NCBI GenBank assembly: GCA_963725665.1
Contig: CAVRZA010000003.1
Coordinates: forward strand, 234,894-298,893
DNA: 64,000 nt
Source of the DNA: an uncultured Actinomycetes bacterium
Lineage (GTDB): Bacteria > Actinomycetota > Thermoleophilia > UBA2241
Direction: 5' to 3'
The notes beneath the pieces were generated by a model. That model had not been told where the DNA came from and made no database searches. It was given only the letters and a program-made list of their open reading frames with translations. The position numbers and the translations under genes were made by a program. Within the stretch, counting starts at the first letter, position 1. Each line of letters begins with the position of its first letter. Positions 414-30,637 of this stretch are shown here, one piece after another.

Positions 414-3400
414 TGTACCTGCGCGCCGTGCGCCTCAAAGGCTTCAAGTCCTTTCCCCTGCAGACCGAGCTCGTCTTCGAGCCCGGGATCGCCGTGGTCA
501 TAGGTCCCAACGGCAGCGGCAAGAGCAACATCGCCGACGCGGTCATGTGGGTGCTCGGTGAGCAGAGCCCGACGACCGTCCGGGGCTCGTCGATGCAGGA
601 CATGATCTTCGCCGGGAGCGACGGCCGGCGAGCGAGCGGCAGCGCGGAGGTCGAGCTCACGTTCGACAACGGCGACGGCGCGCTGTCGCTGCCGACCCCC
701 GAGGTCAGCATCGGGCGGCGCGTGCGTCGCGACGGCGAGGCGACCTACTTCATCAACCGTTCGCCGTGTCGCCTGACCGACGTCGTCGAGCTGGTGGCCG
801 AGGTCGGCCTGGGCAAGGAGATGCACTCCATCGTCGGGCAGGGCAAGGTGGAGTCGCTGCTCGCTGCCAAGCCGGTCGACCGCCGCGCGCTGGTCGAGGA
901 GGCCGCCGGTCTGGGACGGTACAAGCGTCGGCGCGAGCGGGCCGAGCTCAAGCTGCGCGAGGTGGCGCGCAACTTGGAACGCGCGCGCGAGACCGAACGC
1001 GAGGCGGCCACCCGCCTCGCTCCCCTGCGCCGGCAGGCGAACGCCGCCGAGCTCTCGCGCGCCCTCGAGACCGAGCTCTCGGAGATCGAGGCCCGGCTGC
1101 TTGCCGGCGAGCTCGAAGAGGTCGCCGGGCGCGCCGACGCCGAGCGCGCCGCCCTCGACGAGGCTGCGGCCGGCAGGGCCCTGGTCGACGAGCGGCTGCG
1201 CGAGACGGCGTCACAACGGCGGGCTGACGACGAGCGTTTCGCGCGCGAGCTTGAGGAACGCGAGCGCCGCCGGCAGCGCGCCGTTCGCGCTCGCTACCTT
1301 GGAGACCGCATCGAGAGCTGCGTGCGTCTGACTGCTCAGCGCGGCGCGCTCCTCGAAGAGGTCGAGCGCGCCGCGCGCGGCGAGGTCGAGCGTCTGCGGG
1401 CCGAGCTGGCGCTGACCGCCGCTCGGCCGGCAAGCGACGACGACGATGCCGACGTCGAGGCCGGTCTGGCGGCGGCGCTCGCCGCCGCCGAGAGCGCCCA
1501 CGACGACGCCGCAAGGGAGCTGGCGACCGCACGGCGGGTGCAGGCGGAGGCGCGCGGCGAGCGTGACCACCTGACCGCCGAACGCGAGAACACCGCGGCT
1601 CGAGCGCAGCGGCTGCGCGAACGCGTGCGCGAGCTCGACGAGGCGGCCGCGCTCGCGTCGGCGCAGACTGAGAGCGCGCGCGACCAGGCGGCCGGGCGCC
1701 GGGCGGCGTTCATCGCCGGCGCGGCACGGAGGAGGCGGCGCGCGCCGCCGAGACGCGGGCCGAGGCGGCGGCGCGCGCCGCCGAGACGCGCGTGTCGGCC
1801 GCCAGGTCGGCACTGAGGGACGCTGAGGAGGATCTGCACGCTCTGACCGCCGAGAGGCGCGCGCTGGAGCTAGAGCTCGAGCACCTCACCGCCGGCCTGC
1901 GCGACCTCGACGAGGTCGGTACCGCCGTGCTCGAGGTGACCGGCGCCTTCCCGGGGGCCGCGGTCCTGGCGCAGGTGGTCGGCTGCGAGCGCGGCTACGA
2001 GAAGGCGCTGGCCGCCGCTCTGGCTCAGAGTCCGGGGGCCATCGCCGTGCCGCGCTCGCTCGACGGCTGGTCGCTACTGGCGGCGCTGCGCCAGGCGGGC
2101 GTCTCGCTTGCCCGTCTCCTGGTGCCCGTGAGGCGCGAGGAGGCGGCGGCCTTCCCCGGGGCGGCGCCGCTGCTCGACAAGGTCACCGTCGACGGCGAGG
2201 AGCTGGAGGAGTTCCTCGCCGGTGTCGTCGTGGTCGACGATCTGCGCGCGGTGCCCGATGGTTTCGACGGTCTCGCGGTGACGCTCGAGGGAGCCTACTA
2301 CCGACCACGTGCCGGTGAGCTCGGGTTGGCTGCGGGCGTGCCGGCGGCGGTGGTGCTCGAGCGGCGTTCGCGTGCGAGCGAGCTCGAGGCGAGGCTGGCT
2401 GCCACGCGCGCCAGCGAGCTGCGCGAGCAGCCGGTCGTGGCGCGCCTGCGTGATGATGGCGACGCTGCCGACGAGGCGCGGCGTGAGCTCGAGGGCGCGC
2501 TCGAGAAGGCGCGCGTCGAGGGACGCCGCGTGGCCGCCCAGCGGCGCGCGCTCGAGGACGAAGTGAACGCCCTCGAGGCCGGCGTGGGGCAGGCCGAACG
2601 GGCGCGAGACGCTTCGCTGGCCGAGGCCGACGCCGCTCGCGCCGACGTCGTGGCGCTCGAGGCGCGCGATGCGGAGCTCCTTATGAGGCTCGACACGCTT
2701 GCACCCGCCGTCGCCGCGGCCGAGTCGGCCGCGGCGGCCGCCGAGGAGCGTCATGAGGTCGCGCTGTCGGCCGTCACCACGGCCCGGGTCGAGCATGATT
2801 CTTACAAGGCACGCCAAAGCCAGGCCCAAGAGGAGCGGGCGCGGGCGCTCGCTCGTCAGGCGAGCGCTCGCGCCCGCCTCGAGGAGCTCGAACGCCGTCT
2901 GCGCGGCATCCCCGCTACGCGCGAGGCCTCGGGCGAGCTGGCCGCCGCGCTGGCCGCCGCCCGCGCCCGCGCCGCGGCGCTGGCCGAACGGCTCGAGTCG
3001 CAGGCCGGCGACCTCGACGCTCTGCCGCGGCGCGAGGAGTCGCGCCGCCTCGCCGAGCGCGAGGTCGAACTGCGACAGGAGGCGGAGGCGCTGGGCGAGC
3101 GGCGCGCGGCCGCTCAGGTGGAGCTGACGCACGTCGAGGAGCGGCGGGCCGAGCTCGCCCAGCGCCTCGACGCCATCGCCGAACGGCTCGAGCGGGCCTC
3201 GTTCGCGCCGCCGGCCGACGAGGACGAGGCGCGGGCGCTGCGCGCCCGCGCCGAACGCCTCGCGCGACGGCGCGACGGCCTCGGCCCCGTCAACCCGCTG
3301 GCCGAGGCGGAGTGCGCGGAGCTCGACGAGAGGGTGGGCTTCCTCCGCGAGCAGGTGCGCGACCTGGAGCGGTCGAGCGGCGAGCTGCAGGAGCTGATCG

Positions 3401-4020
3401 CCGAACTGACGGGCCGCATCGACGACGACTTCAGTGAGACGCTGACGGTGGTGGCGGACCAGTTCGAGAAGATGTGCGCCATCCTGTTCCCCGGCGGCCG
3501 CGGCAGGCTGCTGCTCGTCGAGGCCGAAGGCGACGAGCCCGGCGGGGTGGGCATCGAGGTCAAGCCGGCGCGCAAGCTGGGCAAGAAGCTGGGCCTGCTC
3601 TCGGGCGGCGAGCGCGCGCTGGTGGCGATCGCCTTCCTCATGGCCCTCATGCTGGCTCGCCCCAGCCCGTTCTACATCCTCGACGAGATCGAGGCGGCGC
3701 TCGACGACATCAATATCGGGCGTTTCGTCTCGCTGCTGCGGGAATACCGCGACCGCACGCAGTTCGTCATCGTCACCCATCAGAAGCGCACCATGGAGGC
3801 GGCTGATGTGCTCTACGGCGTGACGATGGGGCCCGACGGCGCCTCACACGTCGTGAGCGCGCGCATGGCGGAACAGGAGATCGAGGCCGAGGAGGCCGCC
3901 GGGCCCAGGGCGGCGCGAACGGCTGAGACGCAGGCTGAGCCGCCCGGCGTGGGGTCGGCGGCGGTAGCCATGGTGAGACTCGACGACGACGCCGGAGCGC
4001 CGGTGGACGAGGTGGACTAG
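413..4020 (+). CDS. smc: Chromosome segregation ATPase SMC (one frameshift near 1720-1790, probably a sequencing error)
   Basis: LKGFKSF and Walker A GPNGSGKSN in ORF 413..1816; coiled coils, LSGGE signature and ILDEIEAALD Walker B in ORF 1792..4020. Confidence 0.95.
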
Positions 4021-7080: not shown

Positions 7081-7575
7081 ATGGCCGGTCTGTGGGCCTT
7101 CGCCACCGTGGGGCGAGCCCACGGCCTGCACGGTGAGATCTACCTCGACCTCCTGCCCGGCGGCCTCGACTACCTGACCAGGGGGTCGTCGTTCTCTATC
7201 GACGGGGGCGGCGGTCGGGTCACGCCCGTGCGCCTCGCGCGCACGGGCGGCACCGACCGCCGCCCTCTCGCGCGTCTCGACATCGCCGAGACGATCGACG
7301 AGGCGCGCGCCCTGCACGGCACGGTGCTCTACGCGCAGGCCGACGAGCTCGACGAAGGCGTCGATCACTTCCTGGTGAGCGAGCTCGTCGGCCTGCGCGT
7401 AGTCTCGGGCGAGACCGACCTGGGCGAGGTACGCGGGGTGCTCATGAACCCGGCTCACGACATCCTCGAGATCGGCGGCGAGGGCCGCGAGACGGTGCTC
7501 GTGCCGCTGGTGAAGGAGCTCGTCGAGGTCGACCGCGAGCGCGGCGTCGTGATCGTGAAAGAGGGTCTCCTGTGA
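7081..7575 (+). CDS. rimM: Ribosome maturation factor RimM
   Basis: VGRAHGLHGE N-terminus, PRC-barrel-like C-terminus (PAHDILEI...VLVPLV); synteny. Confidence 0.92.
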   Translation: MAGLWAFATVGRAHGLHGEIYLDLLPGGLDYLTRGSSFSIDGGGGRVTPVRLARTGGTDRRPLARLDIAETIDEARALHGTVLYAQADELDEGVDHFLVSELVGLRVVSGETDLGEVRGVLMNPAHDILEIGGEGRETVLVPLVKELVEVDRERGVVIVKEGLL

Positions 7576-8255
7576 AGTTCGACGTCTTCACGCTCTTCCC
7601 CGAGGCCTTCTCCTGGTTCCTGCAGCAGGTGCACGTACAGCGGGCACGCGAGCTGGGCGCCGAGTTCCGCCTCTGTAACTACCGCGACTACACGCCGCTG
7701 CGCCACGGGCAGGTCGACGACACCCCTTACGGGGGCGGCGCCGGCATGGTGTTGCGCATCGACGTCGTGGGCGCCGCTCTGGAGGCCGTCTACGGCATCG
7801 ACTGCGTGCAGGTGAAGGCGGACAGGCGCGTCGTCGAGCTGACGCCCCGCGGGCGCCAGCTCGACGACGCGCTCGCCGGCGAGTTGGCCCAGGGCGACCT
7901 GTGCCTCCTCTGCGGGCGCTACGAGGGTATCGACGAGCGCGTGCGCGAGCTGGTGAACGACCGCGTGTCGATCGGGCCGTACGTTCTCTCCGGCGGAGAG
8001 ATCGCCGCCGCGGCCCTCCTCGACGCGGTCGTGCGCAAGATCGAGGGCGCCGTATCCAACCCGGAGAGCGTGAGCTCCGACTCGTTCGCGCCCGGCCTGG
8101 CGGGAGCGCTGGAACACCCGCACTACACGCGGCCGGCGGAGTTCCACGGCTGGCGCGTGCCGGACGTTCTGCTCAGCGGTGACCATGCCGAGATCGAGCG
8201 CTGGCGGCGCGGCAACCTCGGCGGGCAGCCCCCAGACAAGAAGTCCGACCGCTGA
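7572..8255 (+). CDS. trmD: tRNA (guanine37-N1)-methyltransferase
   Basis: TLFPE, VDDTPYGGGAGM, CGRYEGIDER, VLSGGE, YTRP motifs. Confidence 0.97.
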   Translation: MKFDVFTLFPEAFSWFLQQVHVQRARELGAEFRLCNYRDYTPLRHGQVDDTPYGGGAGMVLRIDVVGAALEAVYGIDCVQVKADRRVVELTPRGRQLDDALAGELAQGDLCLLCGRYEGIDERVRELVNDRVSIGPYVLSGGEIAAAALLDAVVRKIEGAVSNPESVSSDSFAPGLAGALEHPHYTRPAEFHGWRVPDVLLSGDHAEIERWRRGNLGGQPPDKKSDR

Positions 8256-8436
8256 TTACGCAAGCGCGTCGCGCAGAGCACACGGTGCGGGTGGACGTTC
8301 GACGGATCGCACCTCGACCTCGCTCGTCCGCGTTTCGTCGCCGTGGCGGTCCGCGGTCTGTGTCGAGGCGGTGCCGGTCGGGTACCTTGTGGCCCAGACG
8401 AAGCGGCGTGAGAAGCGATGAGGAGGTGAGGTCTGC

Positions 8437-8649
8437 TTGGCGTTGACCGTGTATACGAAGGTAGGCTGCACAGCGTGCGAGGCGCTAGTGAGAGACTTGA
8501 AGGCGCGAGACGTGCCGTATCGGCTGGTCGATATCGACCGCTCGCCCGGCGGCGCGCAGGAACTCTCTCACCTGACCGGAGGCAGGCCGACAGTGCCCAC
8601 CGTAGTTGACGAGGACGGCGAAGTGCTGCTCGGTTTCGGCAACACCTGA
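8437..8649 (+). CDS. Small glutaredoxin-like protein (CxxC); terminal TGA might be Sec
   Basis: VYTKVGCTAC, TVP cis-Pro motif, C-terminal GFGNT; strong AGGAGGTGA RBS. Confidence 0.8.
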   Translation: MALTVYTKVGCTACEALVRDLKARDVPYRLVDIDRSPGGAQELSHLTGGRPTVPTVVDEDGEVLLGFGNT

Positions 8650-8787
8650 GGAGGAGACCGTGGCCTGCGTCGGCGGCTCTGGCTGGCCGAACGCAGGCGT
8701 CGGCGCGCGTGACGCGCTGGATCAACTCACCAAGCGGTGCGCCGCGCAGCGCCAGTGCATCGCTTCGCTGCTCAGGCGCGACCCTAG

Positions 8788-8818
8788 GGGTGGGCGGCAA
8801 GGGACGAGCCGCCCACCC
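8788..8818. terminator. Hairpin between convergent genes
   Basis: GGGTGGGCGGC / GCCGCCCACCC 11-bp inverted repeat. Confidence 0.6.
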
Positions 8819-8830
8819 TCTATGCGTCGG

Positions 8831-9614
8831 TCACGAAGGCTTGCTCGAATAGGTCGCCACGCGCCTCGCGTGTTCTTCTAGGCCGATCGGACAGGCGTCG
8901 TGACAGATGAGGCACTCGTGGCTCCCACGCGGCGAGTAGTGTCCCGCCCACTTCTGCCAGGCCTTGTTGGGCTCGGCCAGCATCTCCTGCGGGACGATGC
9001 ACTTCCAGAAGTCGACCTTCTTGCCGGGCTCCACGCCTTGCGATGGACCGGGGATGATGGCCCCCGTGGGGCAGGCCCTGACGCACAGCTCGCAGTCGCC
9101 ACAGAGGTCCCTCGCGAACGGCTCGTCGTAGGGCAGAGCCGCGTCGGTGACCACGCAGCACCAGCGCACGCGCGGGCCAAGCAGTCGGGGTGACGCACAG
9201 GGTCTGCTTGCCGATCCACCCCAGACCGCCCATCGTGGCGGCGGCCTTCGCGTGCACGAAATGGGTGACGGCAGTCTTGTGCCCGGCGTCTCTCACGGCC
9301 TCTGCGAAGCGGTGAGCGCGGGCCTCGGTCAGCTCGTAGTAGAGATTGTAGTACTGCGATCCCGGCACGTCGTCGAAGGGGATGGCACCGTCGGGCAGCA
9401 CGGACGTCACGACGGTGTTGAGCATCGTGTCCCAGATGTGCATGCCGAGCACGATGACGCTCTTCGCACCGTCGAGGAACCCGTTTGGCACCTCCAGGCA
9501 GCGATGCGGCGGAAACGGGACCGCAGCAAGCTTCTCGGCGTCGACGACGCCGAAGAACTCGAACCCATGGTCCGCTGCCTCGGCCCGCAATCGTTCCTTC
9601 AGGTCAGGCGACAC
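8831..9614 (-). CDS. QueG-like / reductive-dehalogenase-like 2x[4Fe-4S] protein (frameshift near 9180)
   Basis: AKSVIVLG and KAAATMGGLGWIGK in one frame; GPRVRW..VVTD, CGDCELCVRACPTGAI and CLICHDACP in the next. Confidence 0.8.
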
Positions 9615-9900
9615 GACACGACCTCACTTCCTCTACGCGCAGTGCGCTGGTCTAGAACCTGTCCACATGATGGCGGGCGCGGCGGCTTCGGTGCGGCCGC
9701 CTTCACTCCCTCGACGCGATCGTTGAGCGTCGAAACGTGCCTGCATGGCGGCATTATAGTCCGCGGTGCGCGGCCGTCTACCTCGCTCCAAGATGCGGGC
9801 CGTGGAGCGCTCCGAGTCCAGGGGCCACGCACACCGTCCTCTGGCAGGGCGCAGCCCGACTCGCTAGACTCCCGCTGCCGCGGTAGGGCCCTCTGCCACC

Positions 9901-10413
9901 GTGAAGGTCGCAATGAGGCTCTTCGGCAAACCCGATATCGAGCAGATGAGGCGCGATGGCGACATCGCAGGCCTTGTCCACTGGGCTGACTTCCGTAGGG
10001 ACCAGAGCCTGAGTCGCGCCGCGGTAGCGGCTTTGCGCGAGAACGTCTACGCGGTCGTGGAGCGTCTGTTCGACACCGCTGTCTGGGCTCACGCGCACAG
10101 GGGGCCAGGCCGCAGGGGTCTGTCACCTTCGGGGGTGCATCGGCTCAACGAGATCACGGTCGCCTTGCGCAAGATCGGTCCGCCCGCCGTCGCTCCTCTC
10201 GCCGATTCGGTCCGCCTGTACGGCGACTACGGGGACCCCGACGAGCACATGCGATTCCTCTACTTCGCCCTGGTCTTTGACGTGTTGCAGAAGATAGGAC
10301 GTCCGGCGGCGAACGAGTTGCGTGACCTCGCCGAAGGCGCAGATCCCGATGTCCGCGAGCATGCGCAGGAGGCGTTGAGCAAGCTCGAAGCACGAGGTCA
10401 GCTTGACGACTGA
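9901..10413 (+). CDS. Hypothetical helical (HEAT-repeat-like) protein
   Basis: ALRKIGPPAVAPL and LQKIGRPA..DPDVREHAQEALSKL resemble HEAT/PBS-lyase repeats. Confidence 0.6.
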   Translation: MKVAMRLFGKPDIEQMRRDGDIAGLVHWADFRRDQSLSRAAVAALRENVYAVVERLFDTAVWAHAHRGPGRRGLSPSGVHRLNEITVALRKIGPPAVAPLADSVRLYGDYGDPDEHMRFLYFALVFDVLQKIGRPAANELRDLAEGADPDVREHAQEALSKLEARGQLDD

Positions 10414-11063
10414 TGAAGAGGTCGTGGTCGCCGTTCGCGCATCCTGGCCCTCATCGCGGGAGTGGGCGACACTTGCTGCACGGCGGCGGCTGAAGGCCGG
10501 CTTGTCCCCTGCTGTGGCTGCCACGCCGAGCCCCGGCGATCCCTGATCCGGCGTGCCGTAGCCGACGGCACCCGGGCTTGGCAGTGAGGCTCCAGATTGC
10601 GCCACAGCGTCTTCCCTCGCATACCGTTGACCGGGGGGTATAGCATTGCAATAGAATTCACGTACACATTGGAGCCGTCACCGGCCGTTCGTTGGACGAT
10701 GTGTCACGGAGCGATTCGACGGGCGGCGAGGCGACTCCAACTGTTAGTTCTGCGTACGGAACCAAGGTTCGAACGCGACGGTTCCGGTCGGCATGCATTG
10801 GCGCTTGATGGGGCGAGAACGCGATGGCTGCAAGGTCGCAGACGGATCATTCCACGTTGTCTCGAGGTCGCGTTCCCCCGCCCGGGCGGTCTCGAATCGA
10901 CCGCCTTCCAGTACGACCACGGTCGTAGAACCTTTTGGCGCAAAGTGCGACAGGAGAGCGAGAGGCGTCGTTGGTCACCGCTCTCACGCCGAGGAGGTGA
11001 TGTCATCCCGAGAAGGCTGACCGGCCGAAGGAAGAGCAGTGAATCCCGAAAGGAGGGAGTCAC

Positions 11064-12473
11064 GTGGCGAGAACTACCAAGGCCCTGCCCGAGCGCATGA
11101 CGGTGTTTCATGCCTGGGAGCGCGCGCGGAGAGGTCCCAAGGTCGACGAGAAGACGTGGGATTTCGAGGTCATCCCCAAGACGGCGACTCGTCTGAAGGA
11201 GAAGTACGGGATCAAGATGGACAAGAAGGTCATGATCCCGACCGATCCCGACATCATGAAGCGGCTCTACGAGGCCGGCCTCGAGATGCTCGTCGAGACC
11301 GGCGTGTACATCATCGAGACCGGCCGTGTCGTGAAGTACACCAAGGATGAGGTGCTCTTCACCGTTGCTCAAGCGCCGAAGCACGCCATCATCGGCGAGG
11401 GGGCACTGCACTACCGGCCGCTCGTACCGAGGGCGTGGAACAGCACGACGCCGCCGATCATCCAGGGCGGCCCGACCGGCGCGCCCTGCAGCGAGCAGCA
11501 CTTCCTCGGCATCCACGAGTCGTACGCCAAGGAAGGCATCGTCGACTGCATCGTCGACGGCGTGCTCGAGAAGATCAACGGCTACAACCCGGCCCCGGAG
11601 AGCCCCGCCGAGGTGTGGGCCTCCAAGCAGGAGATGTTCCTGGTCCGCCAGGCCCAGGCCAAGGCCTGTCGCTTAGGGATGGGGTTGTAGGGCGCCGAGA
11701 CGCCTCTCGGGGCGGCGGCCATCGTTGCAGCCGATTTTCCCGGCGGCATGCGGGCCACTGACAACCACGAGGTGTCCCAGCTTAATGAGCTGAAGATGGA
11801 AGCCGGAGGCTGGCAATTCGTCGCTCATTACGCACTAGCTGGCGACATCATCATGGATGAGCAGATGCCCATTTTCGGCGGCTTTGCCGGTGGTCTCGAG
11901 GAGACGACCATCGTCAACGTTGCCACCCACCTCAACGCCTTCGTCATGAACCAGGCGACCTGGCACCTCGACGGACCCGTCCACATGCGCTGGGGCAACA
12001 CCACCGCCAGGGAGGTTCTGGCAGTGGCCGGCCACGGCCAGCGGGCGATCGAGGAGCATTGGCCGGATCTCATGACGGGCAACCAGTACTACCCCACCGC
12101 CGGCCCGGGCACCGTGATGTGCCTGCTAGAGACGGCGGCGCAGGCCATCACCGACACCTGCAGCGGGCGCGAAGTGGTGTCGGGCGTCGCGTCGGCCAAG
12201 GGCGTGAAGCTCGACAAGACCACCGGCCTGGAGGCGCGCTTCATGGGCGAGGTCTGCCACGCTGTGGCCGGCATGCCCCTGGACCAGATCAACGAGATCC
12301 TCGATGCTCTGGTGGCCAAGTACGAGGGTGACTACCTGACGGCGGATGAAGGCAAGACCTACGCCGAGTGCTACGACACCGACAAGGTCGTCCCCAACGA
12401 TGAGTACCTGGCAGTGTACGACGAGGCCGTTGCGATCATGAAGGATCTCGGCGTCAGCTACAAACTGTGGTAA
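11064..12473 (+). CDS. mtmB: Monomethylamine:corrinoid methyltransferase MtmB, pyrrolysine at TAG 11688-11690 (469 aa read-through, Pyl209)
   Basis: ORFs 11064..11690 and 11748..12473 are in frame; the junction reads GMGL-TAG-GAETPL...DNHEVSQLNELK, matching MtmB GMGV-O-GPETSL...DSHEVSQLNELK; QGGPTG and EQMPIFGG also present. Confidence 0.96.
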
Positions 12474-12586: not shown

Positions 12587-13231
12587 ATGGCAAACGAGGA
12601 GTTGATCAAAGAAGCGCGTGCGGCGCTTCTTACGACCGACAAAGCCAAGGCTGAGGACGTCGCCAAACGAGCCATAGCCGCAGGCATGGATCCGGGCGAT
12701 ATCATGCAGAATGGCTTCGTCGCCGGCATCCGTGAGCTCGGCGAGAAGTTCGACAAGGGCGAGGTCTTCCTGCCCGAGTTGATGCTTGCGGCCGAGGCCA
12801 TGGAAGCCGCCATGGAGATCTGCAACGCGGCCCTGCCCGAGGGCAAGAGCGAGACACGCGGTGTCGTCGTCATCGGCACCGTGGAGGGCGACGTGCACGA
12901 CATCGGCAAGGCTGTCGTGATCGCCTATCTGCGCGCCAACGGGTACGACGTCCATGACGTCGGGAAGGACGTGCCGCCGCAGGACTTCATCGACAAGGCG
13001 GTTGAGGTCAACGCCGACGTCATCGGCGCGAGCGCTCTGCTGACGGCCACGCTGGCCGTGCAGGGCGAGATCGAGGAGTACCTCAAGGAGGCCGGCCTAC
13101 GCGGCAAGTTCAAGACGATCGTGGGCGGTGCCACCTGCACGCAGGGCTGGGCCGACAAGATCGGAGCCGACGCGTACGCGAAGGATGCCAGCGACGCGCT
13201 GCAGAAGATCGGCGAACTCGTCGGACGCTGA
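12587..13231 (+). CDS. mtmC: Cognate corrinoid protein (MtmC-like)
   Basis: GEVFLPEL cap, GTVEGDVHDIGK B12-binding motif, SALLT, VGGA, IGADAY; directly after mtmB. Confidence 0.9.
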   Translation: MANEELIKEARAALLTTDKAKAEDVAKRAIAAGMDPGDIMQNGFVAGIRELGEKFDKGEVFLPELMLAAEAMEAAMEICNAALPEGKSETRGVVVIGTVEGDVHDIGKAVVIAYLRANGYDVHDVGKDVPPQDFIDKAVEVNADVIGASALLTATLAVQGEIEEYLKEAGLRGKFKTIVGGATCTQGWADKIGADAYAKDASDALQKIGELVGR

Positions 13232-13307: not shown

Positions 13308-13363
13308 CCGTATGACAGTCTTCGGACGGATTGCCGGCAAGGTTCGCGCTGAGGAGGGCAGCG

Positions 13364-14590
13364 GTGGCACAGGTCAATGCAGGAGACACAGCCTTCGTCC
13401 TCATCAGCGCCGCCCTCGTGGCGCTGATGACACCGGCTATCGCCTTCTTCTACGGCGGGCTGGTGAGGCGCAAGAACTTCTTGTCGATCATGATGCAGAG
13501 CTTCATCTCGATGGGCATCGTGACGGCCATCTGGGTCGCCGTCGGCTACTCGCTGGTCTTCTCCGGCGATGTCTGGGGCATCATCGGCAACCTCGATTGG
13601 GCCGGCCTACACGGCGTCGGCCAAGCTCCGGGTCCGTGGGCGCCGACCATCCCTGCGCTGGCGCACTTCGACTTCCAGGAGATGATCGCCATCTTCACGC
13701 CGGCTCTGATCACCGGCGCCTTCGCCGATCGGGTGAACTTCAAGAGCTACCTCTGGTTTCTCGTGCTCTGGAGCCTGCTGGCCTACATCCCGCTGGCGCA
13801 CTGGGTGCGTGGCGGTGGTTTCCTCGACCAGTGGGGCGCAGAGGACTTCGCTGGCGGCCTGGTGGTCCACGTGAGCGCCGGGTTCGCTGCACTGGCGTCG
13901 GTGTACGTCGTGGGCAAGCGCAGGTTCTTGCCCGGCGAGCGTACGTTGCCGCACAACATCTCTTTCGTGGCGATCGGCACGGCCCTGCTCTGGCTCGGCT
14001 GGTTCGGCTTCAACGGAGGGAGTGCACTGGCGGCCAACGGAATCGCCGCGCAGGCATTCGTGAACACCGACATCGCGGGCTCGATCGCCATGTGCACCTG
14101 GCTTGCGCTCACGTGGCTCCGCAACGGCAAGCCGAGCCTCGTCGGCGCCCTCACGGGAGCGATCAGCGGACTGGTGTGCATCACCCCTGCGGCCGGGTTC
14201 GTCCCGACCTGGTCGGCATTCGTCTTCGGCGCAGCCGCGGGCGTCGTCTGCTACTACGCGATAGTCGTCAAGCAGAGGATGGAGTGGGACGACGCGCTCG
14301 ACGTCTGGGCGGTCCACGGTGTCGGCGGGATACTGGGCACCCTGCTGCTCGGTGTCTTCGGCTTCGCTGCGGTCAATGCCGCCGGCTCCGATGGGCTGTT
14401 GGCAGGGGACGCGGCCTTCTTCGGGGTGCAGCTCGTCTCCGCTGTGATCGCCGCCGGCTACTCCTTCGCGGTGACGTACCTGATCCTCAGGCTGCTCAAC
14501 CACTTCCAGCCCGTGCGCGTGCCCGACGCCGTGGAGCAGAGGGGCCTCGACGCCGAGATGCACGGCGAGGAGGCCTACCACCTGACTTGA
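13364..14590 (+). CDS. amt: Amt-family ammonium/methylammonium channel
   Basis: FFYGGLVRRKN, DFAGGLVVH, GWFGFNGGS, DDALDVWAVHGVGG, GLDAEMHGEEAY; GAGGAGG RBS before GTG 13364. Confidence 0.95.
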   Translation: MAQVNAGDTAFVLISAALVALMTPAIAFFYGGLVRRKNFLSIMMQSFISMGIVTAIWVAVGYSLVFSGDVWGIIGNLDWAGLHGVGQAPGPWAPTIPALAHFDFQEMIAIFTPALITGAFADRVNFKSYLWFLVLWSLLAYIPLAHWVRGGGFLDQWGAEDFAGGLVVHVSAGFAALASVYVVGKRRFLPGERTLPHNISFVAIGTALLWLGWFGFNGGSALAANGIAAQAFVNTDIAGSIAMCTWLALTWLRNGKPSLVGALTGAISGLVCITPAAGFVPTWSAFVFGAAAGVVCYYAIVVKQRMEWDDALDVWAVHGVGGILGTLLLGVFGFAAVNAAGSDGLLAGDAAFFGVQLVSAVIAAGYSFAVTYLILRLLNHFQPVRVPDAVEQRGLDAEMHGEEAYHLT

Positions 14591-16990: not shown

Positions 16991-18383
16991 TGGCAGCTGA
17001 AGCGCCTGCGGTCACCGCCGCAAGACCGAAGCGCCTGAGCCTGCTGCGCGTCCTCGGCCCCTGCACATCTGGGGTCTCGGCGTGGGCATCGTGCTCGTGG
17101 GCGAGTTCATGGGTTGGAACTTCACGGTGGCCAAGGGCGGAGTGTTCGGCGCGCTCGTCGCCTGCTGGTTCAGCGGCATCCTCTACTCCTGCGTCGCCAT
17201 GATCGACTCCGAGGTGAGCTCGACGGTGGCCTCGGCCGGTGGCCAGTACGCGCAGGCGAAGCACATCCTCGGCCCCTCGGCCGCCTTCAACCTGGCTCTG
17301 TTCATCATCTTCGAGTACGTGATGCTCGAGGCCGGCGACGCCATCGTGATCGGCGCCATCATGGAGAAGCTCAGCGCGAACTTCAGCGCGACGGCCTGGG
17401 TCATCCTGACCATCGCCATCCTGTCGTTCCTCAACTACCGCGGCGTGACGTTGGCGCTGACCGTCAACTACATCATCACGGCCATCGCCTTCATCACGAT
17501 CCTCCTCCTCCTCTTCGGGAACTGGGGGAACTTCTTCACCCAATACCTATTCACGGCCGATATCGGCGGCAGGAATCCCGAGATGCCGTACGGCTGGCTC
17601 GGCATCCTCGCCGCGCTGCAGTTCGGCATCTGGTATTACCTGGGCATCGAAGGCACCTGCCAGACGGCTGAGGAGTGCCGCTCCGCTCCGCGCGCGCTGC
17701 CGATCGGCACGATGTCTGGGCTCGTCACGCTGCTGATCGCCGCCACCATCACCTGGTACGTCGCTACCGGCCTGGTCGACTGGGTGACGCTCGGATCATC
17801 GGCGTACCCGCTCTACGACGCGGCGCTGAACACGAGTAAGGACTGGCTCATCGTGGCGCTGTTCATCGGCACTGTGTTGAGCTGTCTGGCGTCGGCTAAC
17901 GGCTGCATCAACGACGCCTCGCGGGCCTGGTTCGCCATGGGACGCGACCAGTTCGTGCCGCGCTTCTTCGGCGGCGTGCACCCGCGCTACAAGACGCCGT
18001 ACCGCTCGATCCTGTTTCTGATCCCCATCGCCATGGCCTTCGGGTACACGGGGTTGCTCGACCAGGTGATCACCTTCTCGATCATCTCGGGCTGTTTGAT
18101 ATACGCCGTCATGCCCCTCAACATCATCCGTTTCCGCAGGCTCTATCCGATGGGCTCCATCAGGCGGGGCTACGTCTACCCCTTCCATCCCTGGCCGGCG
18201 TTCGTGCTCGCTCTCTTCGTAGCGCTCACGTTCATCGCCGTCTACTTCGGCTACTGGCGCAACCTGGTCGGGGCCATGGCCTTCTATATCCTCGCCTCGA
18301 TCTGGTTCACCTTCCACCGCTACAGGATGGTGGATCGCTCCAAGCTCTACACCATGCCCTGGCCGCGGCCTAAGGGATACTGA
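16990..18383 (+). CDS. APC-family amine permease (MtmP/ethanolamine-permease-like), 1-nt frameshift near 17062
   Basis: LLRVLGP then HIWGLGVGIVLVGEFMGWN, WYYLGIEG, AEEC, HPRYKTPYR; many TM helices. Confidence 0.88.
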
Positions 18384-18409: not shown

Positions 18410-18865
18410 ATGTTCGAGACGATACTAGTAGCAACAGATGGCTCGCACTCGGCGGGGAAGGCCGTCGACTTCGCGGTGGAGCTCGCCAAGAGCCATGGTT
18501 CCAAGCTCGTGATCTGCACCGTCACACGAGAGCGGCTGGCGACGATCGACAGGGACCCCGGCGAGCCCAATCCGCCCGACGTCGACCCGAGAGCATCGCT
18601 GAGTCGCGGTCAGGCCGACCAATCGGCGGAGGTTCTGCGCCGAGGCGAGCAGGCGGCCAAGGCAGCGGGCCTGGGGAACTACGATCTGCGCGAGATCTAC
18701 GGCACGAACACAGGCGCCACCATCGTGAAGGAAGCCGAAGCGATGGGAGCCGACCACATCGTCGTCGGCTCTGTCGGGGAGACCGGCCTCGCCAGGCTGC
18801 TCATGGGTTCCGTGGCGGCGAGCGTGGTGCATCACGCCCACTGTCCGGTGACGGTGGTGCGGTAA
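18410..18865 (+). CDS. Universal stress protein
   Basis: ILVATDGS...LMGSVAASVVHHAHCPVTVVR. Confidence 0.93.
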   Translation: MFETILVATDGSHSAGKAVDFAVELAKSHGSKLVICTVTRERLATIDRDPGEPNPPDVDPRASLSRGQADQSAEVLRRGEQAAKAAGLGNYDLREIYGTNTGATIVKEAEAMGADHIVVGSVGETGLARLLMGSVAASVVHHAHCPVTVVR

Positions 18866-20277: not shown

Positions 20278-22130
20278 GTGAATGCAGAGGTGTCACCTCC
20301 GCACGACGCAGGGGACACCTCCGGTAACCCAGATCCCAGGCGGATCGCCCCATTCCTGTCTCACCACCCGCTTCTCGAGGGCCTTAGCCGTGACGATCGC
20401 GAGAGAATGGCCGAGATGGTCGTCGTGCGTTGCGTGCCGGCGGGCGAGTCGGTCCTCGTCGAGGGCGGGCCGCCAGGTACGTATCTCTTCGTCGTCGTGG
20501 AAGGGTCGATGGAAGTCCTGGCCGGGGGCCTTGTCGTCGACGTGCTGACGAGTGGGGAGGTGTTCGGCGCCCCGACCCTGGTCACGGGTCTTGCCCCAGG
20601 GTTCTCGGTTCGCGCGCGCGAAGGCTCGACGTTGTATCTCGTCCCTCGAGAGGCGGCGATCGAGCTGCTCCTTCGCCCTGAGGGGGTCGCATTCGTGGTG
20701 GCGTCCTTGCGAGACCGGCTCGTTCACACCTCGCGGACGTTCAGATCGGTCGCCGACCCGCGGAGCGTTCCCGTTTCTTCTCTCATCCGTCGCGCGCCTG
20801 TCATCTGCCAGGCCGACACGCCCATTCGCGACGTGGCCATGATCATGAGCCAGGAGGTCGTAGCCGCTGTCCTCGTGGAGACCCGCCAGGGTCTCGGCAT
20901 CGTCACCGACGCCGATCTGCGCGACAGAGTACTGGCCGCTGGATTGTCGGCGCATGCTCCGGTCGGCTCGATCACGACCACTCCGGTCCGCACCATCAGC
21001 GCCGAGCGCCTGGCGCCCGAGGCGAGCATCGAGATGATGCAAGCCGGCATCAACCATCTGGTCGTCATCGATGCCGCTGGTGGCGTGCTCGGCATCGTTT
21101 CGGCCGGCAGCCTGATGGCCCCCGATGCGCTGAGCCCCTTCGCTCTGCGCTGGTCGATCCTGGCTGCACGCAGCGTAGACGAGGTCGTCGAGGCGGCCAT
21201 CCGTCTGCCAGAGGTGTTCGTCTCACTCACCGACCAGCACCTAGACGCCCCGACGATCTTGCGCGTGGTCACGCTGGTGGTCGACACGCTTACGCGCCGC
21301 TTGCTCGAACTCGCCGTCCGGCAGCTGGGACGGCCGTCTGTTCCCTACGCTTGGCTTGCTCTCGGCAGCGCCGCGCGCAGCGAGCTCACCCTCGTCTCCG
21401 ACCAGGACAACGCGCTGGCCTATGCCGACTCGGACGACCCCTCGGTCGACGCGTACTTCGAGCGACTGGGAGAGGCGGTTAACGATGGCGTGGCACGCTG
21501 CGGCTTTGCGGCCGATCAGTCGGGAGTGCTGGCTCGAGATCCGCACTGGCGCATGTCCCGGTCCGACTGGGTGCATGTCTTCCAGGAGTGCTACGACGTG
21601 TGGGACTGGGAGCACGCAGCGCGGGCCTGCGTGGCCTTCGACTTCCGCTGTATCGACGGCGATCTGGACATCGTGACCCCTCTGACCGAGGTCGTGCTGA
21701 GGGCTCCCGACCATCCCGCGCTGTTGAACCGGCTCGCCCGTTCGGTGGTCGATACACGTTCGCCCCTCGGCTTCCGCCAGCACTTGCCCGATCGGGTTGA
21801 CATCAAGAGGAGCGCTCTGCTGCCAATCGAGAACATCGCGCGCTACTTCGCGCTTGCGAATCGGATCACCGTGCCGGCGACGTTGGATCGTCTCACCGCC
21901 GTGGAGGAGCTGGCCATTCTCGAGACCGAGATAGTGATCGCCCTGCAGGAGGCCTACCGCGCCATGGCTCACCTCCGGCTGCGCCACCATGCAGACGCCA
22001 TCGAGAGGGGCGACGCGTTGACGACACCATTGACACGACTACGCTACAGCCGTTGGCACGCGTGGAAGTGCACGAGGCACTGCGGCTGATTGCGGCCGCC
22101 CAGAAACGGGTGCCACTCTACGTGACGTGA
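20278..22130 (+). CDS. cNMP-binding/CBS/DUF294 putative nucleotidyltransferase, copy 1 (frameshift near 22010)
   Basis: cNMP domain (GEVFG), CBS pair (GIVTDADLR), WLALGSAARSELTLVSDQDNAL, DIKRSALLPI. Confidence 0.88.
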
Positions 22131-22274
22131 GGTCGAACGGCCCTCGCTGGCGGTCGGTGATGCATCCCTTGTCGCAAGTCCGGGCTCGAGGATGCCCGCG
22201 ATGTGGCGAGGGGTCGACGCCAGGGTAGACTCAAGATCGCGGCGGCTCCGCGCGAGCGCCCTCCAGTAGCGGGA

Positions 22275-24485: not shown

Positions 24486-25886
24486 GTGAGCAAGATACTG
24501 ACCCGCATGGGGGACGGCAGCTTCGTCGAGCTGACGCCCGACGAACTTCGTGCAGACATCGTCGCGGCTACCGAAGATGCGGCCGACAAGGGCAAGATCC
24601 CTCCCTTGCAGGACGACGAGATCGACAAGCTCGTCGAGATATTCTCCGCGCCGTGGCGCGTGATCGGGGTCGAGCCTGGTCACGAGGTTCCCCTCACCAA
24701 GGATGAGACGGCGTGCACCCTTGTTTCATCGCAGCTGTCGAGTGGCGCTCACCTGCCGATCAGCCGTGAGGCGGCGGTCGAGATCTTCGAGCGCGTGTTC
24801 GCCTTCGACACCATGGAGCTGGGCTGGATCGACTACTCCTTCAAACCGGCGAAGGCGATGGTCTCGCTCGACCAAGTGTCGATCGAGCGCCTGCTCGCTA
24901 CGACGGTCTTCCCGGTTCTCTACGGCGCGATGCCCAACATGGGCCTCTACTACACGCCGGACGGGCCTTTTACGAACCCCGCCGATCTGCTCGGCATGAT
25001 GAAGATCGCCGAGGCGCGCGAAGAAGAGATGAAGGCCGCCGAGATGTGCATGGAAGACATGATCTACATGTGCAAGCGCTTCGATGAGATCGGCGCCGAC
25101 GGCATCGACTTCGATACGACCGCATCGGCCGGCGACGCCGACTTCTGGGCGACGCTGAAGACCGTCGAAGAGCTCAAGAAGACGACCAAGCTGGGCATCG
25201 AGGTCGGCATGTCCGGCGAGTTCATCCTCGGCATGCACGGCGAGGTCGAGTACAACGGCAAGAAGCTCGCCGGCATGTTCCCGCACCAGCAGCTCAAGGT
25301 CGTGGAGGAGGCCGGCGCCGACATCTTCGGCCCGGTCGTCAACACCAAGACCAACAAGTCGGCGCCGTGGAACGTCGCTCGCGCCGTGACCTTCGTGAAG
25401 GAAGTCTGCAAGCAGGCCAAGATCCCGATCCACGCCAACGTGGGTATGGGCGTGGGCGGCACACCCATGTTCGAGACACCGCCGGTCGACGCCCTTAGTC
25501 GAGCCAGCGTGGCGATGGTCGAGATCGCCAAGGTCGACGGGTTGTAGGTTGGCGTGGGCGATCCCTTCGGGATGTCCGTAACTCACGCGATTGCCTCCGG
25601 CATGGGTGGCATTCGTACCGCTGGAGATCTGGTGGCGCGGATGCAGCTCAACTACCGGATGAGGCTCCCCGAGGCGAAGAAGTACGTCGCCGACAAGCTT
25701 CACGTGAGCACCTTCGACCTGTCGGATTCGACCGTCATGCGCAACCTGCGCGAGGAGCTCGATATCGGCTGCGTCGAAGCCATCCCCGGCCTCGCCAAGG
25801 GGCTGGCGGCGAAGGCTCGCATCGCCGATCTTCTCGATATCAAGATCGAGTGCGTCGAGAAGCTCAAAGCGAAGATGCCGGCCTGA
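24486..25886 (+). CDS. mtbB: Dimethylamine:corrinoid methyltransferase MtbB, pyrrolysine at TAG 25545-25547 (466 aa read-through, Pyl354)
   Basis: TRMGDG N-terminus, [11 protein letters not shown]; junction [22 protein letters not shown]...AGDLVARMQ matches MtbB VDGI-O-IGVGDPLGM; the two halves are in frame. Confidence 0.96.
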
Positions 25887-25941
25887 CGCGCAAGGCGAGA
25901 GCCCCAGGGTTGACGCAATCCGATTGTTGGAGGTCACAGGC

Positions 25942-26586
25942 ATGGCAAACGAAGAGTTCTTCGCCGAGGCAAACGCGGCGATCAAGGCGTGCGACAAGGA
26001 GAAAGCCATCGCTGCCGCCAAGCGCGGGCTGGCGGCGGGCATCCCGCCCGACGAGATGCTGAAGAAGGGCTTCGTCGTCGGCATCTCTGAGATGGGCGAC
26101 CTTTTCGAGCGCGGCGAGGTTTTCCTTCCGGAGCTCGTCCTTGCGGCCGACGCCATGATGGGCGCCGCCGAGGTGTGCAACGCGGCGCTGCCCGAGGGCA
26201 AAGGCGAGAAGAAGGGCACCGTAGTCATCGGGACCGTTCAGGGAGACGTGCACGACATCGGCAAGACGATCGTCGTCGCGTTCCTGCGCGCGAACGGTTA
26301 CGACGTTCACGACCTCGGCCGCGACGTCGCGGGCGCCAAGTTCATCGACAAGGCCGCCGAGGTCAACGCGGACGTCGTCGGCATGAGCGCTCTCCTGACG
26401 ACCACCATGCGCGAGCAGATCAGGGTGCTCGATGCAATGAAGACGGCCGGCGTGCGCGACAAGTACAAGGTCATCGTCGGCGGCGGCGCATCGACCCAGA
26501 AATGGGCCGACAAGATCGGCGCCGATGCTTACGCGGAGGACGCCAACGACGGCGTGAAGAAGATCAACGAGCTCACCGGCAACTGA
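25942..26586 (+). CDS. mtbC: Cognate corrinoid protein (MtbC-like)
   Basis: GTVQGDVHDIGK, SALLTTTM, IGADAYAEDA; follows mtbB; close paralog of 12587..13231. Confidence 0.9.
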   Translation: MANEEFFAEANAAIKACDKEKAIAAAKRGLAAGIPPDEMLKKGFVVGISEMGDLFERGEVFLPELVLAADAMMGAAEVCNAALPEGKGEKKGTVVIGTVQGDVHDIGKTIVVAFLRANGYDVHDLGRDVAGAKFIDKAAEVNADVVGMSALLTTTMREQIRVLDAMKTAGVRDKYKVIVGGGASTQKWADKIGADAYAEDANDGVKKINELTGN

Positions 26587-26651: not shown

Positions 26652-26958
26652 CGTGGACGGTGGGCAAGGCGCCATTTCGGGGACTGGAGGCGCAGGTCGG
26701 GTGCTGGAGGCTCGAGCGGTCGGTGGCCTGGAGATACGCGTTGTCCCTAGGCACTCCCTTCTGTACAGTTCCGCAAAGGAGAGCGCTCCAGGGGGTCGAA
26801 GGACATCGGCTGAGTGGCGATCGAGCGATCGACCGAGCGAGGGCTCGAGTGTCGAGGAAGGGAGATCATCCAGGACGAGTAGCGTGAGCTAGGCCGCTGA
26901 CACACGGCCGTTACCAGCTGTTGGTGTAGTTGTGACATTCGACCAGGGGGAACAGCCA

Positions 26959-28608
26959 ATGGCAGAAGACCAAAGCTCCGAACGGTGGCAAACGTCGGAT
27001 GTGACCGACAAGTACCTCTCCGAATACTCGGACGAGTACAAGCAATCGCGTTTCAAGACCAACATGCGCCGCGACATCAGCTGGGTCGGCGCCTTCTTCG
27101 TCGCCGCCGGCGTGCCGGCGCTCATCTTGTTCTCGATGGGCGGCATCTCGGCCGGCACCGGGCCGGTGGCCGTGCTCGTGTGGACGCTCTCTGTGCTGGT
27201 CGGCTTCGTCGACGCCTTCATCTTCGCCGAGATCGCGGGGCTGCACCCGAAGAAGTCGGGCGGTACCGCCGTGCACGGCGCCACCGCCTGGATCCGCTAC
27301 ATCAGGCCGGCGGCTCCGATCTCGCTGTGGTGCAACTGGCTCGCCTGGACGCCGGTGCTGGCACTCGGCTCCGGTCTCTGTGCGGGGTACCTGCTGTCGG
27401 TCTTCTTCGCTCCAGACGCCACGATCAACACGTGGACGATCGACCTCGTCAATCTCAATTTTCTCAAGAGTGGGCTGGAGCTGCGCATCAACGCCGTGTT
27501 CATCCTCGGCGCGCTCATCATGCTCGCGGTCTGGAACATCCAGCACTACGGCATCCTGCGCACTGCGCGCGTGCAATTGGTGCTCACGATCGGGGCGATG
27601 ACGCCGCTGCTGGTGCTGACCCTGGTCCCGCTGTTCACCGGCGATGTGGTGATGAGCAACTTCTCGCCCTTCGTGCCCGTCAACGGCTCGTGGAACATCG
27701 ACGGCTGGACGGCGTTCCTGGGCTCCTTCTTCATCGCCGCCTGGTCGGCCTACGCCTTCGAGACGGCCATCTGCTACATGAGCGAGTTCAAGAACCCCGG
27801 GCGCGACCAGGCCAAGGCCATCCTCTGGTCGGGTGTGTTCTGCATCTTCTGCTACACCTTGATCCCGTTCGTCTGGCAGGGCGTCCTGGGCACCGACTAC
27901 ATGCTCAAGCCCGAGATCTACTCGGGAGCCGGCGTTCCCGCGGGCTTCGCGGCCATGTTCAACTTCGGCGCTTGGTTCACGAAGTTCTGCGCCATTGCCA
28001 TGTTCTTCACCGTGATGCTCTCGGTGATGACGGCCATGTCCGGCTCGTCCCGCACGCTGTTCCAGGGCGGCCAAGACGGCTGGCTGCCAAAGTACCTCTC
28101 GCACCTCAATGAGCACAAGGTGCCGACCTGGGCCATGTGGACCGACCTCGTCTTCAACCTCTTCCTGCTGCTGATGTCGGACTACGTCTTCGTGCTCGCC
28201 GTCTCCAACTGCAACTACATGATCTTCAACTTCCTCAACCTCAACGCCGGCTGGATCCACCGCAAGGACAACTCCAGGGTTCCGCGGCCCTTCAAAGCTC
28301 CGATGCCGCTGTTCGTGCTGGGAACGAGCTTCGCCTACCTGAACATCTTTCTGTTCGGGGCCGGCGCGAACTTCTGGGGCGCGGGCACGTTCTGGATGGG
28401 ATGGATCTCGGCCCTGATCGCACTGCCGGTCTTCTACTACCGGCACTACGTCACAGACAAGGGCAAGTTCCCGGTGCACATGTTCGACGACCTCATCCCT
28501 GAGGGAGAAACGGCGCTCGGACCGACCACGTGCGGTGTGCTGCCCTACGTCGCCATAGCCGGCGGCCTGGCGTGCATGACCATCGGCTACGTGATCTTCT
28601 GGGTCTGA
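26959..28608 (+). CDS. APC-family permease, probable dimethylamine permease (MtbP-like)
   Basis: GAFFVAAGVP, AEIAGLHPKKSGG, WSAYAFETA, DGWLPKYL; multi-TM; directly after mtbBC. Confidence 0.88.
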   Translation: MAEDQSSERWQTSDVTDKYLSEYSDEYKQSRFKTNMRRDISWVGAFFVAAGVPALILFSMGGISAGTGPVAVLVWTLSVLVGFVDAFIFAEIAGLHPKKSGGTAVHGATAWIRYIRPAAPISLWCNWLAWTPVLALGSGLCAGYLLSVFFAPDATINTWTIDLVNLNFLKSGLELRINAVFILGALIMLAVWNIQHYGILRTARVQLVLTIGAMTPLLVLTLVPLFTGDVVMSNFSPFVPVNGSWNIDGWTAFLGSFFIAAWSAYAFETAICYMSEFKNPGRDQAKAILWSGVFCIFCYTLIPFVWQGVLGTDYMLKPEIYSGAGVPAGFAAMFNFGAWFTKFCAIAMFFTVMLSVMTAMSGSSRTLFQGGQDGWLPKYLSHLNEHKVPTWAMWTDLVFNLFLLLMSDYVFVLAVSNCNYMIFNFLNLNAGWIHRKDNSRVPRPFKAPMPLFVLGTSFAYLNIFLFGAGANFWGAGTFWMGWISALIALPVFYYRHYVTDKGKFPVHMFDDLIPEGETALGPTTCGVLPYVAIAGGLACMTIGYVIFWV

Positions 28609-29331: not shown

Positions 29332-30135
29332 CTACTCCAAGAGCCCGGCGCGATGAGCCTTGAGGTAGTTGCCGCAGTAGGGGTCCTCGCCGCGCAGCGC
29401 CTCGGCGGCCTTGATGGTGGCCAGCATCTCCTTGTTGCGCACGTCGAGCACGGCGCCGTCGATGCCCAGGCCCATGCACATGGCGACGAAGGTGCGGTTG
29501 AGCAGGGGGCGGTTGGGCAGGCCGAAGCTGACGTTGGAGAGGCCGCCGATGGTGCGCACGGGGAGGCGCTCCTTGACCATCCTTAGGGTCTCCATGGTGA
29601 TCACGCCGGCGCTGGAGTCGGCCGAGACGGTGAGCACCAAGGGATCGACCCAGAGCTCGGCGGCGGGCAGGCCGGCGGCGGTCACCAGCTCGTGCATCTT
29701 GGCCGCCACGGCGAAGCGCTCGGCGGCCGTCGCGGGCACGCCCTCGTCGGAGAGGCAGAGGCCCACCACGGAGCAGCCGTGGGCCTTTATCATGGGCAGG
29801 GCGGCGTCGATGCGCTTCTGCTCGCCGCTGATGGAGTTGATGAAGGGCACCTGGCCACCGCCGGCGAGGGCCGCCTCGACGCCGGCCCGTAAGGCCTCGG
29901 GGCTGGCCGAGTCGACCATGAGGCGCCGCTGCGAGACGCTGCGCACCGTCTCGATGAGCCAGCGCATGTCGGCCACCTCGTCGCCGCCGGCCACGCCGGC
30001 GTTGACGTCGAGGACCGCGGCGCCCGCCTCGTCCTGCTCTCGCGCGAGGCCCTTGATGAACTCGGCGTCGCGCGCCGAGATGGCCTCGCCCACCTGCTTA
30101 CGTGTACCGTTGATCGATTCACCCACGAGCAGCAT
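29332..30135 (-). CDS. Pterin-binding methylcorrinoid:tetrahydrofolate methyltransferase (AcsE/MeTr-like)
   Basis: [44 protein letters not shown]; GGAGG RBS. Confidence 0.92.
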
Positions 30136-30292: not shown

Positions 30293-30637
30293 GTGACCGT
30301 CATCGACAACATCGAGCGTCAGCAGCTGCGCGACGACATTCCGCAGTTCAAGGCCGGGGACACGGTCAAGATCCACTTCCGCGTTGTCGAGGGCAGCCGG
30401 CAGCGCACGCAGATCTTCCAGGGCATCGTGATCAAGCGCCAGGGCGCCGGCGTGCGCGAGACGTTTACCGTGCGCAAGCAGTCGTTCGGCGTCGGCGTCG
30501 AGCGCACCTTCCCGCTGCATTCACCCAAGATCGAGAAGATCGAGGTCGTCATGATCGGCGACGTGCGACGGGCGAAGCTCTACTACCTGCGCCAGAAGGT
30601 CGGCAAGCAGGCGAGGGTCCGCGAGAAGCAGCGCTAG
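30293..30637 (+). CDS. rplS: 50S ribosomal protein L19
   Basis: [10 protein letters not shown]...[21 protein letters not shown]...[10 protein letters not shown]. Confidence 0.98.

Follow-up and report, generated by a model that had tools for sequence, protein, structure and literature searches.

An mtmB gene with an in-frame UAG codon, probably read as pyrrolysine, in an uncultured Thermoleophilia bacterium

Pyrrolysine (Pyl) was discovered in the monomethylamine methyltransferase MtmB, and this founding case is textbook material. The recoding of UAG is thus already known, with reports for bacteria in general and for Actinomycetota in the case of mttB and mtbB. The closest characterized relative of the gene described here is mtmB1 of Methanosarcina barkeri, whose product belongs to the same Pfam family over its full length and which stands at about 52% identity (best tblastn segment against Methanosarcinaceae MtmB genes). 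The two genes have in common a UAG at the homologous column, within a GMG-x-O-G-x-ET motif, and an adjacent gene for the cognate corrinoid protein. They differ in that the present host is a bacterium without the coenzyme M branch, so that the methyl acceptor is probably tetrahydrofolate, and in that it has a two-part PylRS (PylSn plus PylSc), uses TAG frequently as a stop codon (39%), and carries an MtmB of a separate clade. Among bacteria, Borrel et al. 2014 (PMC3941956) name a Pyl-MtmB for Acetohalobium arabaticum and Desulfotomaculum acetoxidans, and they describe Pyl decoding in Acetohalobium arabaticum as conditional and induced by methylamines. Like the organism studied here, these are bacteria with an amber-codon mtmB in a genome that contains pyl genes, but they are low-GC anaerobic Firmicutes, whereas our genome is that of a member of the Thermoleophilia with 68% GC and a haem-copper oxidase.

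Closer to our organism in taxonomy, Actinobacteriota MAGs from a thawing permafrost mire express Pyl-encoding mttB and mtbB, according to a 2023 report in mSystems (PMC10805028), whose main text mentions mtmB zero times. The mire organisms share their phylum, habitat type and Pyl methyltransferase system with the genome analysed here, which has eight mtbB and five Pyl-mttB genes. Of the 81 bacterial PylRS genomes surveyed by Guo et al. 2022 (PMC9630628), two are from Actinobacteria, a figure repeated in a review (PMC11764691). Our search of the literature on pyrrolysine in Thermoleophilia or Actinobacteria and on soil methylamine found no description of a Pyl-mtmB for this class.

The window analysed here, a stretch of 64,000 nucleotides from the genome of an uncultured bacterium, contains the mtmB gene and the features listed in Table 1. 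The gene runs from a GTG at 11064, with a GGAGG-type ribosome-binding site judged by eye to lie 5-6 nt upstream, to a TAA at 12471-12473, and its lone internal stop is the TAG at codon 209, in the context GMGL-TAG-GAET. An earlier note, made from the sequence alone, had described two in-frame halves parted only by this TAG, and translation of 11064-12473 confirms the description, giving a read-through product of 469 aa. Its identification of that product as MtmB is also borne out: residues 12-463 align to positions 1-449 of the 450-position profile PF05369 (E 3e-190, 633.2 bits), in one continuous match that covers both ORF halves. Among solved structures, the product matches those of M. barkeri MtmB1 (1L2Q/1NTH and 1TV2-4; E ~1e-151 to 8e-151). 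In a phmmer alignment with chain A of 1L2Q, the placeholder at residue 209 faces the X (Pyl202) of GMGV-X-GPET, in agreement with the note's placement of the TAG at the Pyl position. The note had further predicted that standard gene callers would split the gene, and under table 11 it indeed yields two ORFs, 11064-11690 (208 aa) and 11748-12473 (241 aa); public protein sets likewise contain C-terminal halves of MtmB relatives, of about 260 aa.

Third-position GC content is similar on the two sides of the TAG (GC3 of 0.89 upstream and 0.85 downstream). Taken together, the continuous Pfam match, the coincidence with the Pyl202 column, the GC3 values and the presence of the TAG in five orthologues exclude a chance juxtaposition of two frames, so that, on the evidence of its sequence, 11064-12473 is a single intact gene. 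Members of the non-Pyl MtmB group (MtqB-like) have a sense codon at the Pyl column; this gene has TAG there.

Table 1. Features of the island and its flanks, in window coordinates
Feature	Coordinates	Strand	Evidence and remarks
trmD	7572..8255	+	PF01746; left flank of island
mtmB, monomethylamine:corrinoid methyltransferase	11064..12473	+	469 codons, single in-frame TAG; PF05369 633 bits
UAG codon 209, predicted pyrrolysine	11688..11690	+	Pyl202 column of 1L2Q; TAG in 5 family orthologues
PYLIS_1-like stretch	11688..11787	+	Rfam RF01982; sequence resemblance only
mtmC, cognate corrinoid protein	12587..13231	+	TIGR02370 pyl_corrinoid 228.9 bits (cut-off 215.3); B12-binding domains
Amt-family ammonium/methylammonium transporter	13331..14590	+	PF00909 372 bits; TIGR00836 418 bits (cut-off 343)
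APC-family permease, ethanolamine-permease-like	17082..18383	+	Pfam AA_permease
Usp	18410-18865		Pfam Usp; directly after APC-family permease
cNMP-binding/CBS/DUF294 signalling gene	20278-22089		paralogue of 22203-24165
mtbB, dimethylamine methyltransferase	24486..25886	+	PF09505 664 bits; TIGR02368 560.7 bits (cut-off 369); in-frame TAG 25545-25547, codon 354
mtbC-like corrinoid protein	25924..26586	+	TIGR02370 223.1 bits (cut-off 215.3)
APC permease	26932..28608	+	NCBIfam TMAO-permease model NF053774, 747.8 bits (cut-off 690)
Methyltetrahydrofolate:corrinoid methyltransferase	29335..30135	-	NF005719 294.9 bits (cut-off 259); Pfam Pterin_bind
rplS (L19)	30293..30637, start approximate	+	PF01245, tblastn synteny; right flank of island

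The genome to which the window belongs comprises 3.73 Mb in 12 contigs, with 68% GC and an estimated completeness of 97.5%. Its placement in the Thermoleophilia is mirrored by the Ffh encoded in the window, whose six nearest NCBI-named relatives are all labelled Thermoleophilia bacterium (the best at 94% identity). Its PylSc has relatives, 63% identical, that bear the names Actinobacteria or Thermoleophilia bacterium. No gene of the WhiB family was found in this genome at that completeness, an absence that is unusual for Actinomycetota.

A complete set of genes for making and inserting pyrrolysine is present, at a distance from mtmB and on a separate contig (C6). ARAGORN identified a tRNA-Pyl with the anticodon cta (CUA) at 343702-343774 of that contig, on the minus strand, and inspection by eye gave it a 6-bp anticodon stem, a 3-nt variable loop and G73, all of which are hallmarks of tRNA-Pyl. 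The genes for PylD, PylC and PylB lie immediately upstream on the same strand, and about 47 kb from this pylBCD-pylT cluster are pylSc and pylSn, 2 kb apart on opposite strands. All five proteins score above the cut-offs of their NCBIfam models (PylB 448 bits, PylC 339, PylD 212, PylSc 315 and PylSn 120). The interval between pylSc and pylSn holds a minus-strand gene for a corrinoid protein together with a radical-SAM-like ORF. PylSc is also widespread in the family: of 24 other genomes in it, 21 have a match over the cut-off, as against one of 16 from elsewhere in the class.

The TAG in mtmB is one of many. Fourteen genes of this genome, one for MtmB, eight for MtbB and five for MttB, have a stop codon at the Pyl column, and in all 14 it is TAG and the sole stop in the tblastn alignment; for MttB, Pyl334 of 7XCM served to verify the column. 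The window itself holds a second Pyl gene, the mtbB of the same island. Alongside these the genome encodes about 22 full-length MttB and two MtmB homologues of the non-Pyl kind, and the corrinoid-methyltransferase repertoire is very large for a 3.7-Mb genome. The genome's MtmB homologues of the non-Pyl kind (two intact, one fragmented) belong to the same Pfam family as the window mtmB, but encode Y or S where it has the TAG and are only 26-29% identical to it. Across the family, mtbB occurs in 57 of 60 other genomes, with up to 12 copies per genome and one TAG in each of the 150 matches listed, whereas a Pyl-mtmB with one TAG occurs in five of the 60, a sixth genome having a more distant, stop-free copy. 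Pyl-mtmB is therefore a rare member of the family's Pyl set.

We consider it very probable, from gene content and alignment, that mtmB is a functional Thermoleophilia gene whose UAG 209 is read as pyrrolysine by means of tRNA-Pyl(CUA), PylSn with PylSc, and PylBCD. According to this view, the split synthetase would charge the tRNA with pyrrolysine made by PylBCD, and the residue would be inserted at UAG 209. By analogy with the archaeal enzyme, Pyl209 would then bind monomethylamine, and the methyl group would pass to the Co(I) of MtmC with release of ammonium. The content of the island suggests that the methyl group may subsequently be handed to tetrahydrofolate rather than coenzyme M, through the methyl-THF:corrinoid methyltransferase encoded there, a route like that of other corrinoid-dependent demethylation pathways in bacteria. 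Activases of the RACo/RamA type, which are encoded elsewhere in the genome, could restore Co(I) and so keep the corrinoid reduced, and the Amt protein or the permeases may serve in substrate import or ammonium handling. One RACo/RamA-type activase homologue (C11:277489-278214, 280 bits) contains a single in-frame TGA; the genome has a tRNA-Sec, and this gene could encode a selenoprotein or be broken.

To place the protein among its relatives, we used a maximum-likelihood tree of 25 hand-picked rows, with non-Pyl paralogues as outgroups and archaeal, Thermoleophilia and metagenomic sequences, without the Firmicute Pyl-MtmBs, as the Pyl-type sample. The Pyl-MtmBs group in a single clade (100/99 support), which divides into three well-supported subclades: one Methanomassiliicoccaceae-like, one of Methanosarcinaceae, and one composed of the Thermoleophilia proteins with three metagenomic ones. 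Five Thermoleophilia MtmBs group together at 100/100, and the three metagenomic proteins, at 57-60% identity, join their clade. This separate position means that the gene is not a recent import from either of the archaeal groups sampled. A tblastn search of genome contigs with mtmB returned mostly Methanosarcinaceae, at 50-53% identity. The one bacterial match was a 2-kb contig of a Tissierellaceae MAG, and since its Pyl-mtmB nests inside Methanosarcinaceae, this contig is probably either mis-binned archaeal sequence or a recent transfer. The nearest database relatives, the metagenomic proteins P0002, P0003 and P0004, come from run assemblies and have Q, Q and C, respectively, at the position of Pyl. 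These residues may reflect real sense codons, or they may result from gene calling that translated TAG or TGA with a different code.

Because this MtmB groups apart from the two archaeal clades and is about 52% identical to the characterized enzyme, its strict specificity for monomethylamine is not certain. The protein could be a genuine Pyl enzyme whose substrate is not, or not only, monomethylamine, for example some other small methylated amine. The eight MtbB and five Pyl-MttB paralogues, which suggest diversified specificities, would fit such a reading, as would the separate, well-supported clade at that level of identity and the island permease that matches a TMAO-permease model. Set against these points are the retention of Pyl together with the flanking GMG-O-G-ET motif, the pairing with a Pyl-type corrinoid protein, and the nearby gene for an Amt-type transporter, a class of proteins that transport methylammonium; the non-Pyl paralogues of the family are, moreover, much more divergent (26-34% identity). 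We therefore regard a different substrate as unlikely, and favor monomethylamine as the probable one.

A second alternative is that the TAG is a nonsense mutation, which would make mtmB a pseudogene or else two separate small genes, the second of which could begin at the ATG at 11748. TAG is, after all, a frequent ordinary stop in this genome, and RF1 is encoded. However, the TAG lies exactly on the Pyl column and is kept in five orthologues from other assemblies; in the alignment, the TAG column is identical across all five. The orthologues of the family genomes G019 and G064 are 72-73% identical to the window MtmB over the aligned length, and those of G019, G064, G065 and G066 show 69-75% amino-acid identity on either side of the TAG. 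Over 110 codons 3' of the TAG, dN/dS is 0.21-0.25 (it is 0.38-0.69 over 85 codons on the 5' side), and this purifying selection in an unchanged frame argues that the downstream part is translated. With 13 other genes carrying TAG at their own Pyl columns and a full set of pyl genes in the genome, the nonsense reading is highly improbable.

Four public runs, from soil, peat, wetland and a soil RNA-seq library, also yield contigs that span the site at 90-100% identity. The earlier note had raised the matter of reads with a sense codon at the TAG, and at the level of these contigs its reading of the site stands in part: among the 40 differences listed, of 161 in all, none falls at 11688-11690. 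The soil RNA-seq contigs across the TAG give a hint of transcription, and the soil, peat and wetland runs contain close relatives of the organism (shares 0.13-0.38). An error in the long-read metagenome assembly or its sequencing has almost no likelihood as the source of the TAG, since, although SMC and one DUF294 gene look split within the window, errors of long-read assemblies are mostly indels and not substitutions that yield TAG at a functional column, 14 genes have TAG at Pyl columns, and the same mtmB TAG recurs in other assemblies, with the contigs of the four other runs agreeing to the extent just given. The recurrence of the TAG in five related genomes, the purifying selection, the pyl genes and the 14 TAG-bearing genes together make an origin in a pseudogene or a sequencing error very unlikely, and leave pyrrolysine insertion at UAG 209 as our preferred reading.

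A dedicated recoding signal in the mRNA was a further candidate. The stretch that resembles PYLIS_1 begins exactly at the TAG and overlaps conserved coding sequence; it scores 57.8 bits (E 1.2e-10) against a gathering threshold of 70 for RF01982. Folding of the region 3' of the mtmB UAG gave no unusually stable structure (z-score -1.47; 19 of 200 shuffled sequences folded equally well), and no covariation was detected in the stretch among six orthologues (covariation term +1.42, one of 27 pairs compensatory). Given the sub-threshold score, the ordinary fold and the missing covariation, we rejected PYLIS_1 as a recoding signal for mtmB. On the window mtbB, the Rfam model PYLIS_2 scores 89.3 bits against a gathering threshold of 36, with a match that likewise begins at the TAG.

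The mtmB gene is part of a methylamine gene island situated between trmD and rplS. In each of five relatives examined, rplS comes directly after trmD with a gap of ~105-155 bp, which implies that about 22 kb (8256-30292) have been inserted here. GC content is 0.63-0.67 within the island, compared with 0.68-0.75 outside. No flanking or target-site repeats were found over 8000-30600, where the only matches were short chance repeats and those between paralogues, namely mtmC with mtbC and the two DUF294 genes with each other (70-73% identity). Searches with Pfam and NCBIfam recognized no integrase or transposase within the island; an integrase-family gene lies outside it, at 36022-37062. The roughly 2.8 kb upstream of mtmB (8256-11063) contain no ORF with strong GC3 and no Pfam or NCBIfam match. 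A further Usp gene of the island lies on the minus strand. Two genes of the window appear split. The DUF294 gene at 22203-24165 is broken into three ORFs and is either a pseudogene or the product of assembly indel errors, and SMC (413-4020) is divided between the overlapping ORFs 413-1816 and 1792-4020, probably through a frameshift, whether natural or from assembly.

Parts of this arrangement recur elsewhere in the family. mtmC follows mtmB at four other loci (G019, G064, G065 and G066), the permease-Usp pair also stands after mtmBC in G064, and in G064, G065 and G066 the mtmBC and mtbBC modules are again linked, although at other places in the genome. The mtmB-mtbB cassette may travel as one block within genomes. 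The Amt gene was considered as a conserved partner of mtmBC and rejected, as it was not found beside mtmBC at the four other loci; its lack of a counterpart there indicates that the mtmBC-Amt pairing is specific to this genome.

How the cell reconciles pyrrolysine with the ordinary use of UAG is a separate matter. Among the stops of 2051 confident ORFs, TAG accounts for 794 (39%), TGA for 1143 and TAA for 114. Back-up stops are not enriched downstream of TAG: the median distance to the next in-frame stop is 49 codons, as against 46 after TGA. Avoidance of TAG in Pyl-using relatives was likewise rejected: two PylS-lacking relatives have TAG shares of 28% and 16% and two PylS-bearing ones 20% and 42%, values that follow no pattern and come from samples of 61-188 ORFs under slightly looser ORF filters than those applied to the window genome. 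With TAG a common stop, RF1 present and back-up stops lacking, an efficient and constitutive read-through would be costly. Since TAG ends 39% of ORFs and RF1 is encoded, UAG is ambiguous in this organism, and Pyl insertion is probably either conditional, that is, induced by methylamines, or in competition with termination. Conditional expression of pyl genes is the model described for Acetohalobium arabaticum in PMC3941956, and we propose the same here as the most economical reading. One doubtful possibility is that the Thermoleophilia family as a whole constitutes a natural, large-scale instance of conditional ambiguity in the genetic code.

The locus adds mtmB to the Pyl enzymes of Actinomycetota, where it has barely been documented. 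Points of greater interest are the 14 Pyl genes, the heavy use of TAG as a stop beside RF1, and the methylamine cassette within the trmD-rplS operon. Because gene callers halve mtmB and 13 other genes of this genome, annotations understate the methylamine metabolism of a lineage that is abundant in soil and peat and has been little studied. The high share of TAG stops in a Pyl user makes the organism a useful test case for bacterial life with an ambiguous UAG. If methylamines do switch on Pyl decoding, then either hundreds of proteins whose genes end in TAG would be extended, or some context signal or regulator would confine pyrrolysine to the methyltransferase genes. The genome encodes a haem-copper oxidase subunit I, and the organism may therefore not be a strict anaerobe. 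If the proposed pathway is correct, Pyl- and corrinoid-dependent demethylation of methylamines would feed tetrahydrofolate in bacteria that are possibly not strict anaerobes.
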